Source: an uncultured delta proteobacterium
Lineage (GTDB): Bacteria; Desulfobacterota; Desulfuromonadia; Desulfuromonadales; BM103
NCBI GenBank assembly: GCA_963723355.1
Contig: CAVRQQ010000003.1
Location: forward strand, 6,992-70,991
Direction: 5' to 3'
DNA: 64,000 nt
Positions 2,047 to 42,249 of the stretch are shown in pieces (within the stretch, counting starts at the first letter, position 1; each line of letters starts with the position of its first letter). Below the pieces are notes generated by a model that was not told the DNA's origin, ran no database searches, and worked only from the letters and a program-made list of their open reading frames with translations. A program made the translations under genes and the position numbers.

Positions 2047-6308
<4,262 letters not shown>

Positions 6309-8792: not shown

Positions 8793-8918
8793 GCCGGCAC
8801 AAGTGACAGCCAGGCACCCCCGCGGCACACGGCTGAGGCCGCTGCCGCTGCTCCCTTCCGGGCCTGACGGAGTTCACGGCCGTCCGTTGCGCGGGACCCG
8901 GCTGTCACTTCTGACGGC
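8793..8918 (-). ncRNA. ffs: signal recognition particle RNA (small/4.5S type); ends approximate
   Basis: The minus strand contains CAGGCCCGGAAGGGAGCAGC, matching the conserved domain IV motif of E. coli 4.5S RNA (CAGGUCCGGAAGGAAGCAGC). It is closed by a long terminal stem GCCGTCAGAAGTGACAGCC/GGCTGTCACTTGTGCCGGC. The position upstream of dnaX is typical. Confidence 0.85.
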
Positions 8919-9046: not shown

Positions 9047-9136
<90 letters not shown>

Positions 9137-35143: not shown

Positions 35144-35175
35144 AGGTTGGTTGAAATTTCACTTTAGATGTTTAG

Positions 35176-35210
35176 AAGGGCAACAGAGGGTTAATCTGTT
35201 GCCCTTTTTT
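35176..35210 (+). terminator. hairpin plus T-run after the DUF4019 gene (also the outer end of repeat copy A)
   Basis: AAGGGCAACAG-N9-CTGTTGCCCTT followed by TTTT. Confidence 0.6.
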
Positions 35211-35672
35211 GTTGTGCTATGGATTTAAGATAAAATCAAAATCCGGGGGTTGCGCCCCCCGACTGCGCCTTACTCTTTTGCTGGCCCAAAAGAGTAAGCA
35301 GAAAAGGGCCTGCGCTGCGCTGGGCACTTCTTACACGTCAGGGCGGTAACTTCAATTCAGTGAGTTCTACCGATTAAGAGTCTACGTTTCCCCCGCAGGA
35401 TCCGAGGCTCTTGAGAGCCTCTTCTTTTGTGGAGGGTTGCGTCTACTGCGGCAGTCTTTTTTTTACGCTTTTCCCTTGTAAGTCACAGAGAAAGGTCAGG
35501 CCCTTTGACACAGGGCCGGATTCCCATCAGGTAGGGTTCTTGACGTCATGGAAATCCGGCAAAGGAGATGCCCTCCGCAAGGAGAAGGCATTTTTGCATA
35601 CTTTTGTTGCCGGACAAAAGTATGGCGTCTGGCGGGACGCAACCCGCCGGTTTTGTTGTTAAGAAAATAGAA

Positions 35673-35702
35673 AAGGGCAACAGATTTAAACCTGTTGCCC
35701 TT
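35673..35702 (-). terminator. hairpin downstream of purA (also the outer end of repeat copy A)
   Basis: On the minus strand, AAGGGCAACAG-N8-CTGTTGCCCTT followed by TTCTATTTTC. Confidence 0.5.
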
Positions 35703-35729
35703 TGACAATAGCCATATTTTTGCAAACAA

Positions 35730-37028
<1,299 letters not shown>

Positions 37029-41711: not shown

Positions 41712-42249
41712 AAGGGCAACAGGCTAACCACCTGTTGCCCTTGTCCTTATTAAAACAAAACCGGCGGGTCGCGTCCCGCCAGACGCCTTACTTTTTTCCA
41801 GGCGGCGACAAAAAGTAAGCAAAAAGCGCCTTTCTCCTTGCGGAGGGCATCTCCTTTGCCAGGTTTCTGTGACGTCAAGAACTTGCTGTGATGGGGACCG
41901 GCCCTGTGTCCGAAGGGCCTGACGTTTCTGTGTGAGCCTCTCCTTTTGGGAAAAGCTGCAACGAACAAGACAACTTTTGCAAGCTCTTCCACAACAGGAG
42001 GGACTCACAAGAGCCCCGGCTCCTGCGGGGGAAGTGTAGACTCCTGGTCAATTAGAACAATCCGAATTGATGTCGCTGAAATCGGCAAAGGACATGCCCT
42101 CCGCAAGGAGCAGGCATTTTTGCATACTTTTTTGCCAGCAAAAAGTATGGCGCGTCGGGCGGGCGCGACCCCCGGGTTCTGGCTTTTTTTAGTCTTTGAA
42201 GTCCAAAACACAAGCAACAAGGGCAACAGATTAACGATCTGTTGCCCTT
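41712..42249 (-). repeat. ~530-bp structured intergenic repeat element, copy B (inverted relative to copy A)
   Basis: Outer hairpins at 41712-41742 and 42219-42249. The arms and core align with copy A when reverse-complemented. Confidence 0.8.
42219..42249 (-). terminator. hairpin downstream of hemL (also the outer end of repeat copy B)
   Basis: On the minus strand, AAGGGCAACAG-N9-CTGTTGCCCTT followed by a G/T-rich tail. Confidence 0.45.

Follow-up and report, generated by a model that had tools for sequence, protein, structure and literature searches.

A family of hairpin-bounded intergenic repeats at the 3' ends of housekeeping genes in uncultured Desulfuromonadales

The DNA analysed in this work, which we will refer to as the window, is a stretch of 64,000 nucleotides from an uncultured delta proteobacterium belonging to the order Desulfuromonadales (NCBI GenBank assembly GCA_963723355.1, contig CAVRQQ010000003.1, positions 6,992 to 70,991 of the forward strand). 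It contains a block of 527 bp (copy A, positions 35176-35702), located between the convergent 3' ends of a DUF4019 gene and of purA, which a sequence-only reading of the window had described as a repeated, highly structured and non-coding element, resembling either a large structured non-coding RNA (ncRNA) or a miniature transposable element with inverted repeats (MITE). Our results confirm that the element is repeated, highly structured and non-coding. As to its nature, the explanation that we favour, and in which we have moderate confidence, is that copy A is a multi-copy mosaic intergenic DNA repeat lacking an open reading frame (ORF), which undergoes turnover by recombination at its terminal hairpin (T) and is not an RNA gene. 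With regard to the two resemblances noted earlier, the mobile DNA side is favoured, although not in the form of a classical MITE, and the ncRNA side found little support. The mobile DNA reading is favoured because the homology between copies ends at T, and because the orthologous T sites of related genomes are found to be empty, filled, inverted or occupied by another cassette.

Occupancy of orthologous T sites

The same hairpin had been reported at both ends of the block, and it was indeed found there with perfect 11-bp stems. Its pattern, AAGGGCAACAG-N8/9-CTGTTGCCCTT, matches three times in the window versus no match in 100 shuffles, and within the 64 kb the 11-mer of T is present only in the T hairpins of copy A and of a second copy; due to this confinement, the possibility that it is a DNA-uptake sequence was rejected. 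The second copy, whose existence was implied by the label of the first, is referred to here as copy B. Copies A and B show a mean column identity of 83% in a MAFFT alignment and 75% identity over 558 nt by blastn, and their homology starts and stops at the T hairpins. A scan for the T pattern, which covered one genome per species and the JGI (Joint Genome Institute) metagenomes, identified about 90 loci from sediment metagenomes and from metagenome-assembled genomes (MAGs) of Desulfuromonadales or "delta proteobacterium" (individual loci are cited below by their L numbers), with only 9-10 exact-T loci per MAG. Among the T-bounded segments, at least 26 are full-length homologues of copies A and B, with identities of 69-92%, and these will be referred to as type 1. 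Type-1 copies within one genome are at most 92% identical, i.e. they differ by at least 8%, which indicates that turnover is slow.

The site between purA and the DUF4019 gene is occupied differently in different relatives. In L160, which is syntenic with window positions 34.3-44.5 kb over 9.8 kb at 87-89% identity, this site is empty: a lone T stands there with no other sequence added, and it is colinear with the flanks on either side in the window. When the empty site of L160 is compared with the filled site of the window, no flank bases are duplicated and only T is doubled; similarly, the outer flanks of the two element ends differ in all of the copies compared, with no flanking duplication. 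A type-1 element is present at this position in the window, L070 and L071. In L069, where the flanks are 90-97% identical and the purA protein is identical, the type-1 copy has its arms and core inverted, carries a different arm variant (R-b instead of R-a, see below) and is only ~72% identical. In L024 (L024:3388-3953; flanks 95%), a 504-nt interior with an ORF of 51 aa lies between the T pair, and in L056 and L155 the site is occupied by a segment of another type (2b). The 51-aa ORF shows a weak likeness to RelB/PaaA2, which is below the cutoffs (NCBIfam E = 4.5e-5; PDB PaaA2 E = 0.03), and it is followed in the L024 cassette by a short ORF fragment.

Other T sites vary in the same manner. 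Between hemL and pepA, where copy B is found in the window, L160 contains a type-1 copy with its core inverted relative to copy B. Solitary T hairpins were observed at the orthologous 3' ends of hemL (in L106 and L136), metX (8 of 9 orthologues), ptsP/valS (6 of 8), fba and purA. At metX, which has a solitary T in relatives, L037 carries a cassette, both T loops of which are of the cassette type and not of the local solitary type. Based upon these comparisons of orthologous sites, a filled site corresponds to an empty site plus an interior and a second T, which is usually inverted. Over evolutionary time, T has been the exact point at which cassettes were gained or lost, flipped, or exchanged for others.

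Two further observations concern individual sites. In two orthologous loci at the fba site, L066:4919-4950 and L080:2040-2070, one T lacks its outer half (AAGGGCAAC|TGACGCGGG..); the two loci share this truncation, which is located ~100 nt upstream of the start codon of fba. At the purA site, L070 and L071 break off within the element or shortly after it, and blocks of this kind (0.5 kb) are likely break points in short-read assemblies.

Organization of the element and of its family

The coordinates of the parts of copy A and of copy B are given in Table 1. The arms of copy A had been proposed to be inverted copies of each other, and this holds (35231-35258 versus 35634-35661, 79% complementary); the three local hairpins of the right arm and the two core hairpins that had been predicted were also recovered. 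Two other parts of the earlier description had to be revised: the left arm is not degenerate, since it has the usual form of that end in most of the 24 type-1 copies that were aligned, and the core is not unique but is conserved throughout the type-1 family. It had also been suggested that the arms could pair with each other to close the core, but such pairing is less conserved than the local hairpins. In six copies of the alignment, the arm variant R-a is replaced by another variant, R-b. The variants L, R-a and R-b differ in sequence, but all of them retain H1, H2 and H3; in each, H2 is rich in A/T, and H3 is rich in G+C and has a T-run after it. The maintained feature is the local hairpins and not the pairing of one arm with the other. 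Copy B is an exceptional member of the family, as its two arms are alike.

Table 1. Location and structure of the features of copies A and B in the window.
Feature	Position	Strand	Description
Terminal hairpin T of copy A, DUF4019 side	35176..35206	.	Stems AAGGGCAACAG / CTGTTGCCCTT, loop AGGGTTAAT; continues inward with TTTTTTG, terminator-like for the DUF4019 gene (stop codon ends 35143)
Arm variant R-a of copy A	35243..35328	-	Reads outward; three hairpins, H1' (~35298-35328), H2' (35269-35298) and H3' (35243-35262), the last followed by a T-run (outward-facing terminator-like site)
Asymmetric core of copy A	35329..35567	.	Kept across the type-1 family; hairpins at 35404-35421 (GAGGCTC-TTGA-GAGCCTC), ~35499-35517 (GGCCCTTTGACACAGGGCC) and 35515-35560
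Arm variant L of copy A	35568..35650	+	Reads outward; H1 (35568-35591, GCAA loop), H2 (35597-35624) and H3 (35629-35650), then T-run
Terminal hairpin T of copy A, purA side	35673..35702	.	Loop ATTTAAAC; continues on the - strand with TTTCTATTTTC, terminator-like for purA (lowest coordinate of the stop codon 35730)
Copy B	41712..42249	opposite to copy A	Between hemL 3' end and pepA 5' end; T hairpins 41712-41742 and 42219-42249; arms 41755-41860 and 42084-42181

The folding of copy A is much stronger than that of dinucleotide shuffles for both strands (-230.6 versus -171 kcal/mol, z = -8.1, for one, and -213.7 versus -155 kcal/mol, z = -7.9, for the other). Another type-1 copy, L003:570-1129, folds at ~-406 to -422 kcal/mol compared with ~-180 to -300 in other copies, and most of its core looks like a palindrome, as would result if one half had been copied onto the other by template switching.

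At least six further interiors (2a, 2b, S and other types) are found between the same T pair, and they consist of the same hairpin modules (H1-H2-H3 arms and core hairpins) in a different order. The interiors are 250-800 bp in length, and arrays with more than one cassette are short, with at most two cassettes seen.

Properties of the T hairpin

The T hairpin is 31 nt long and its stem is a perfect palindrome of 11-13 bp. In the window, T is located 27-33 nt past the stop codons of the DUF4019 gene, purA and hemL, and the T-run following each of these hairpins is derived from the cassette edge. T and H3 fit the pattern of intrinsic terminators, with ten sites in 900 nt versus 1.2 expected. One of the T hairpins in L051 is found 9 nt past the 3' end of a tRNA.

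The two T loops of an element are related to each other. Of 30 unique cassettes, 23 have loops that are inverted copies (closer to inverted than to direct), and loops that are exact reverse complements were observed eight times compared with 2.2 expected when partners were shuffled (maximum 7 in 2000 trials). The loops vary between elements, and in six cassettes, including copy B, the two loops are directly oriented. The outer part of the stem shows compensatory changes (AAGTGCAACAG..CTGTTGCACTT; AGAGCAACAG..CTGTTGCTCT; AAGCGCAACAG..CTGTTGCGCTT), and while it covaries the inner stem GCAACAG and the loop motif TTAAT persist. We also considered insertion with duplication at the central TTAA of a 34-nt perfect palindrome, which fits the consensus loops ATGG-TTAA-T and A-TTAA-CCAT. 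This model was rejected because it fails for L036 (ATGTTCAAT / ATTGAACAT), L024 and L042, where the loop duplication is inverted and not direct.

The exact T pattern also occurs singly in Bacteroidota, Bacillota, Chloroflexota and gut metagenomes (L006-L008, L011-L014, L017-L019, L022, L025-L031 and others); by our own estimate, ~0.3 matches to this pattern are expected by chance in 596 Gb. The single T hairpins of unrelated phyla are probably independent terminator hairpins with a coincident stem.

In some loci, conservation extends outside T. This is seen in the MFD MAGs (L016:2440-2506 and 3038-3110; also L003, L004, L020, L032, L034, L046, L049, L051, L062 and L066). Two modules adjoin T in such loci. 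Module Q consists of a variable GC hairpin, which is followed by CTCAGGCTGCTGACAAAGTTCAGC..TGATGTTTAGAA, and a decayed Q-like stretch is present at 35146-35175 in the window. Module P consists of TTGTTGACA, a hairpin (AAACCCCGCA..TGCGGGGTTT) and a T-run, followed by GCCTGGCAAGTGGAGTTTCTATGAAGCTTA; it contains a Shine-Dalgarno-like GGTGGAG and an ATG that opens a mini-ORF, the stop codon of which is the TAA of the T loop. P-T-Q also occurs as a solitary unit, at L051:750-915. Additionally, a gene for a secreted protein of 125 aa lies between two T hairpins in L051:6885-7563 and L138:474-1152, one of these hairpins being the T next to the tRNA mentioned above, and this protein shows a weak Rap1a-immunity-like Pfam match (E = 0.007, below the cutoff). 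It was considered as a gene cassette, but as the T loops are direct it is probably a gene between two independent terminators.

Turnover at T and alternative explanations

We infer that turnover takes place through recombination templated on the palindromic T, and we prefer a version in which host functions mediate ectopic gene conversion among T hairpins or template switching between them. The unit has the layout T - arm - core - arm' - T', and a single T marks the 3' ends of housekeeping genes. As T is palindromic, a solitary T would be homologous to the outer halves of both T hairpins of a cassette in either orientation, and an ectopic T-X-T' that served as donor in gap repair or template switching would thus bring in the interior X in either orientation, and both donor loops with it. 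Deletion or flipping of X would come about by the same process in reverse, or if the two T hairpins recombined with each other. Rare events would suffice for this, which fits the 8-28% divergence among the copies. Insertion would rebuild T and its T-run for each of the neighbouring genes and would add two outward-facing H3 terminators, and the block, judged from its sequence, may act as a redundant bidirectional terminator or insulator. Due to these regenerated terminators, the block would be tolerated, and may even be useful, at the 3' ends of essential genes.

A number of points count against this explanation. The terminator activity of T and H3 is deduced from sequence, and a non-sigma-70 promoter or a processed read-through RNA may be involved. 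For RecA-dependent conversion, 11-31 bp is a short stretch of homology, and the strict conservation of GCAACAG and TTAAT hints at a sequence-specific protein, which favours a dedicated enzyme. An exact-stem pattern was used to retrieve the T loci, and the conservation of the stem among them is therefore partly a result of ascertainment. Most of the related loci come from MAGs and short metagenome contigs. Furthermore, no enzyme was found by a crude regular-expression motif screen for IS110, tyrosine and serine recombinases in ORFs of at least 120 codons at T loci.

A dedicated enzyme is central to the main alternative explanation, which we regard as possible but doubtful: that T is the core site of a site-specific recombinase and that T-bounded segments are chromosomal cassette-exchange modules. 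According to this, modules at the terminators of housekeeping genes would be inserted, inverted and exchanged by a recombinase that is specific for T and acts in trans, in an integron- or dif-module-like manner, with type 1 as an ORF-less "empty" or "terminator" module and the RelB-like ORF of L024 as an occasional cargo. The size and symmetry of T (12-7-12 or 13-5-13) recall lox, FRT and dif sites; however, T is unlike dif itself (compared by eye with the dif consensus). Retention of the inner stem and loop motifs while the outer stem covaries also speaks for a recombinase site, and so do modules that are bounded by inversely oriented T hairpins and are inverted or replaced exactly at T between close relatives. 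Inversion or replacement between relatives has been described for dif modules (PMC13141974) and proposed for the dRS3 units of Neisseria (PMC1797815). The presence of a weak RelB/PaaA2-like antitoxin ORF in one module is also consistent with this explanation. On the other hand, if a circle had simply integrated through a lox-like reaction, the T repeats should be direct, and this route was rejected because most of the pairs (23 of 30) are inverted. In addition, no recombinase gene is recurrent within 4 kb of T in 116 loci, where the ORF families are all housekeeping orthologues, and ten ORFs of the window that were scanned are either housekeeping or without a Pfam hit, with no recombinase or invertase among them. 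Searches of plasmids, phages and viral contigs gave no match, with no prophage or viral contig that carried T, and the slow turnover indicated by differences of at least 8% between copies in one genome also counts against this explanation.

The combination of empty and filled orthologous sites is also a property of classical MITEs, and true inverted repeats at the ends (loops included), small size, lack of ORFs, multiple copies and a strong fold are other features that the element has in common with them. If it were a MITE, it would be a deletion derivative of an insertion sequence (IS) with a DDE transposase, T would constitute its 31-bp terminal inverted repeats (TIRs), and the transposase would be supplied in trans. 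We consider this quite improbable, since the junctions of the empty and filled sites lack a target-site duplication, each insertion is at a pre-existing T site that is common to distant relatives, and no split T halves flank the element. Moreover, at least seven unrelated interior families have the same ends and the copies are old, being no more than 92% identical within a genome. No IS with T ends was detected among T-T intervals up to 3.5 kb, in the motif screen of ORFs or in 187 loci; the sole IS found, which is of the IS110 family, has other ends and lies inside an arm.

It is very improbable that the block is a gene for a large structured ncRNA, or for a divergent pair of small RNAs, whose hairpins would represent RNA structure and in which H3 would be a terminator. 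The very strong z-scores of folding, the survival of hairpins across sequence-divergent arm variants, and the presence of H3 and a T-run facing outward on both sides, as for transcripts starting in the core, are what such a gene would show. However, this reading is poorly supported because no sigma-70 promoter was found inside copy A or copy B, the orientation to the flanking genes is not fixed but varies at orthologous sites, the ends are terminator-like, and covariation in the alignment fold by RNAalifold is ~0 (-0.13 kcal/mol), a value that is uninformative for the full alignment as divergent arm variants are misaligned in it. The interior is also dispensable, the site in L160 being empty and other cassettes being present elsewhere, and the hairpins are equal on both strands, as would be given by DNA palindromes. 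The window-+ strand is more stable in 21 of 26 copies, which could be taken in favour of an RNA, but this count was made without base-composition control and hence is not used as evidence.

The searches for known RNAs and for proteins were also negative. The sequence-only reading had recognized no Rfam family in the block, and in accordance with this no match at the gathering threshold was obtained for the element in the window or for 10 related loci; when permissive filters were used, the best scores were 27 bits versus a cutoff of 56, on terminator-like hairpins. The sole gathering-level Rfam matches in the window are three genes of the - strand, one for the signal recognition particle RNA and two for tRNAs (8805-8903, 283-355 and 9052-9136). 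No conserved ORF was found in the element, as the ORF clusters track nucleotide repeats on both strands and their frames break at indels, and a conserved small ORF with a ribosome-binding site, indicative of a small protein or a type I toxin-antitoxin system, was likewise not found. Directly after the right T of copy A, a promoter-like sequence (TTGACA-17 nt-AACAAT, 10/12) is present on the + strand at 35702-35730, and it points antisense into the 3' end of purA.

Lastly, it is hardly credible that the block is an inverton, i.e. a segment that a recombinase flips between inverted T hairpins with a change in the expression of its neighbours: inverted repeats do surround a segment of ~470 bp and opposite orientations are found at the purA and hemL sites among related genomes, but the oppositely oriented copies are only 72-75% identical versus 88-97% for their flanks, which looks like replacement and not flipping, neither copy has an internal sigma-70 promoter, copy A lies between convergent 3' ends, and no invertase gene was found nearby. 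A reversible switch is also unlikely because loci that are nearly identical but were sampled separately (L070 and L071 to the window, L154 to L170, and L103 to L105) agree in orientation, and because the "inverted" alleles belong to other members of the family.

Insertion of IS110-family elements in H3

The motif screen of ORFs described above identified one IS110-family transposase (PF01548 and PF02371), in L072, and the element to which it belongs splits H3 in its loop (CCGGCGGGTCG^CGTCCCGCC). Homologues of this transposase led to nine further loci, in each of which the IS occupies that position and points the same way, and the insertion in the H3 loop is thus observed in 10 independent loci, always in one orientation. 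The IS is ~1.4 kb in length, codes for a DEDD transposase of 339 aa and carries subterminal ATGGTCTCCCCCC / GGGGGGAGACCAT (L072:929-2331; L179-L187, e.g. L179:1405-2802). In most of the nine further loci, H3 has a T-like hairpin beside it, and H2, H1 and the beginning of the core come after it. The element in L072 also carries a 47-nt insert (ggtacggttcataaacatagttacctatgttcttgactcgtacatcc) in its H1 loop (L072:2390-2436). In the window, copy B has an intact IS110 target in H3 at 41761-41780, and the H3 loop of copy A is one mismatch off the target. Elements of the IS110 family are known to target repetitive extragenic palindromic (REP) units (PMC3184786), and an IS110-family recombinase integrates the filamentous phages of Neisseria into dRS3 (PMC1797815). 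By analogy, the targeting of H3 is a REP-like trait. H3 provides a natural and highly specific target for a bridge-RNA-type recombinase of this family.

Significance and comparison with known systems

Palindrome-bounded mosaic intergenic repeats are best known from Neisseria, in the form of neisserial intergenic mosaic elements (NIME) with dRS3, and from enterobacteria, in the form of bacterial interspersed mosaic elements (BIME) with REP units. The family described here represents an independent, sequence-unrelated system of similar logic, in an uncultured lineage involved in metal and sulfur cycling. Its distinguishing twist would be that the bounding unit is the terminator hairpin of a housekeeping gene, which insertion regenerates on both sides, so that the arrival or departure of a cassette would leave neither neighbour without a terminator. 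Natural alleles that are empty, filled, inverted or replaced provide material for asking how palindromes recruit DNA and whether a dedicated recombinase is involved. These results also suggest caution in annotation, as "super-structured" blocks of 0.5 kb such as these would not be RNA genes. No such family came up when the literature was searched by sequence, or in the multicopy-sequence files that supplement the genome paper of Pelobacter carbinolicus, and the Geobacter genome papers describe other repeats but not this one.

The family shares with bacterial MITEs (Chunjie of Geobacter uraniireducens, Correia and Nezha) a small size, lack of ORFs, multiple copies, TIRs and a strong fold, and MITEs also have empty as well as filled orthologous sites. 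Chunjie, for example, is 178-235 bp in length with TIRs of 21 bp and direct repeats of 9 bp (PMC3184786). Unlike MITEs, no target-site duplication or parent IS was found here, and insertion takes place only at a pre-existing hairpin, which is then present on both sides.

The dif modules of Acinetobacter, which are moved by XerC/XerD, have discrete, inversely oriented sites of ~30 bp and are inverted or replaced between close relatives, as are the cassettes in the present case, and both ORF-less modules and toxin-antitoxin cargo occur among them (PMC13141974). However, in their flanking sites a 6-bp spacer separates two distinct arms, one for XerC and one for XerD, whereas T has two identical arms (reverse complements) and a centre of 9 nt. 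Further, these dif modules are plasmid-borne, whereas the T system is chromosomal and no Xer link was seen.

Similar to T, the REP units of BIME in enterobacteria and pseudomonads are extragenic palindromes at gene 3' ends or between convergent genes, and units in alternating orientation, together with linker motifs, form mosaics whose composition varies at orthologous sites, as is observed here. REP units flank the gene for RAYT (TnpA-REP, a Y1 HUH transposase) and are present in hundreds of copies per genome. This copy number is far higher than that of T, for which the exact loci number 9-10 per MAG as noted above. The linkers of BIME are tens of bases long, in contrast to the conserved 470-nt segment with an asymmetric core in our family, and the stem of T, unlike that of REP, is a perfect palindrome. 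REP and BIME are targeted by elements of the IS110 (IS621, ISPpu9/10) and IS3 (IS1397) families (PMC3184786).

The closest likeness in logic is to NIME and dRS3 (PMC1797815). In both cases, a short palindromic unit with a variable centre surrounds many unrelated families of non-coding repeats, the units occupy syntenic intergenic positions with a content that differs between strains (in our case between relatives), and they are proposed substrates for recombination. A recombinase of the IS110/Piv type also has its target within both systems, but in Neisseria this target is dRS3, the bounding unit, whereas here it is H3, an interior hairpin. The sequences of the two units, ATTCCCN8GGGAAT (20 bp) for dRS3 and AAGGGCAACAG-N9-CTGTTGCCCTT for T, are unrelated. 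The RS units of Neisseria are 50-150 bp in length, compared with the longer and highly structured interiors found here, and against hundreds of dRS3 there are ~10-20 T sites per genome, in arrays that are short. According to the 2007 FAM18 genome paper, no NIME arrays had been observed outside Neisseria. T differs further from dRS3 in doubling as an intrinsic-terminator-like hairpin. In view of these likenesses and differences, the family is best described as an analogue, and not a member, of NIME/dRS3, BIME/REP and the dif modules: it follows the same logic as these systems, and it is set apart from each of them at the level of sequence or of enzyme.

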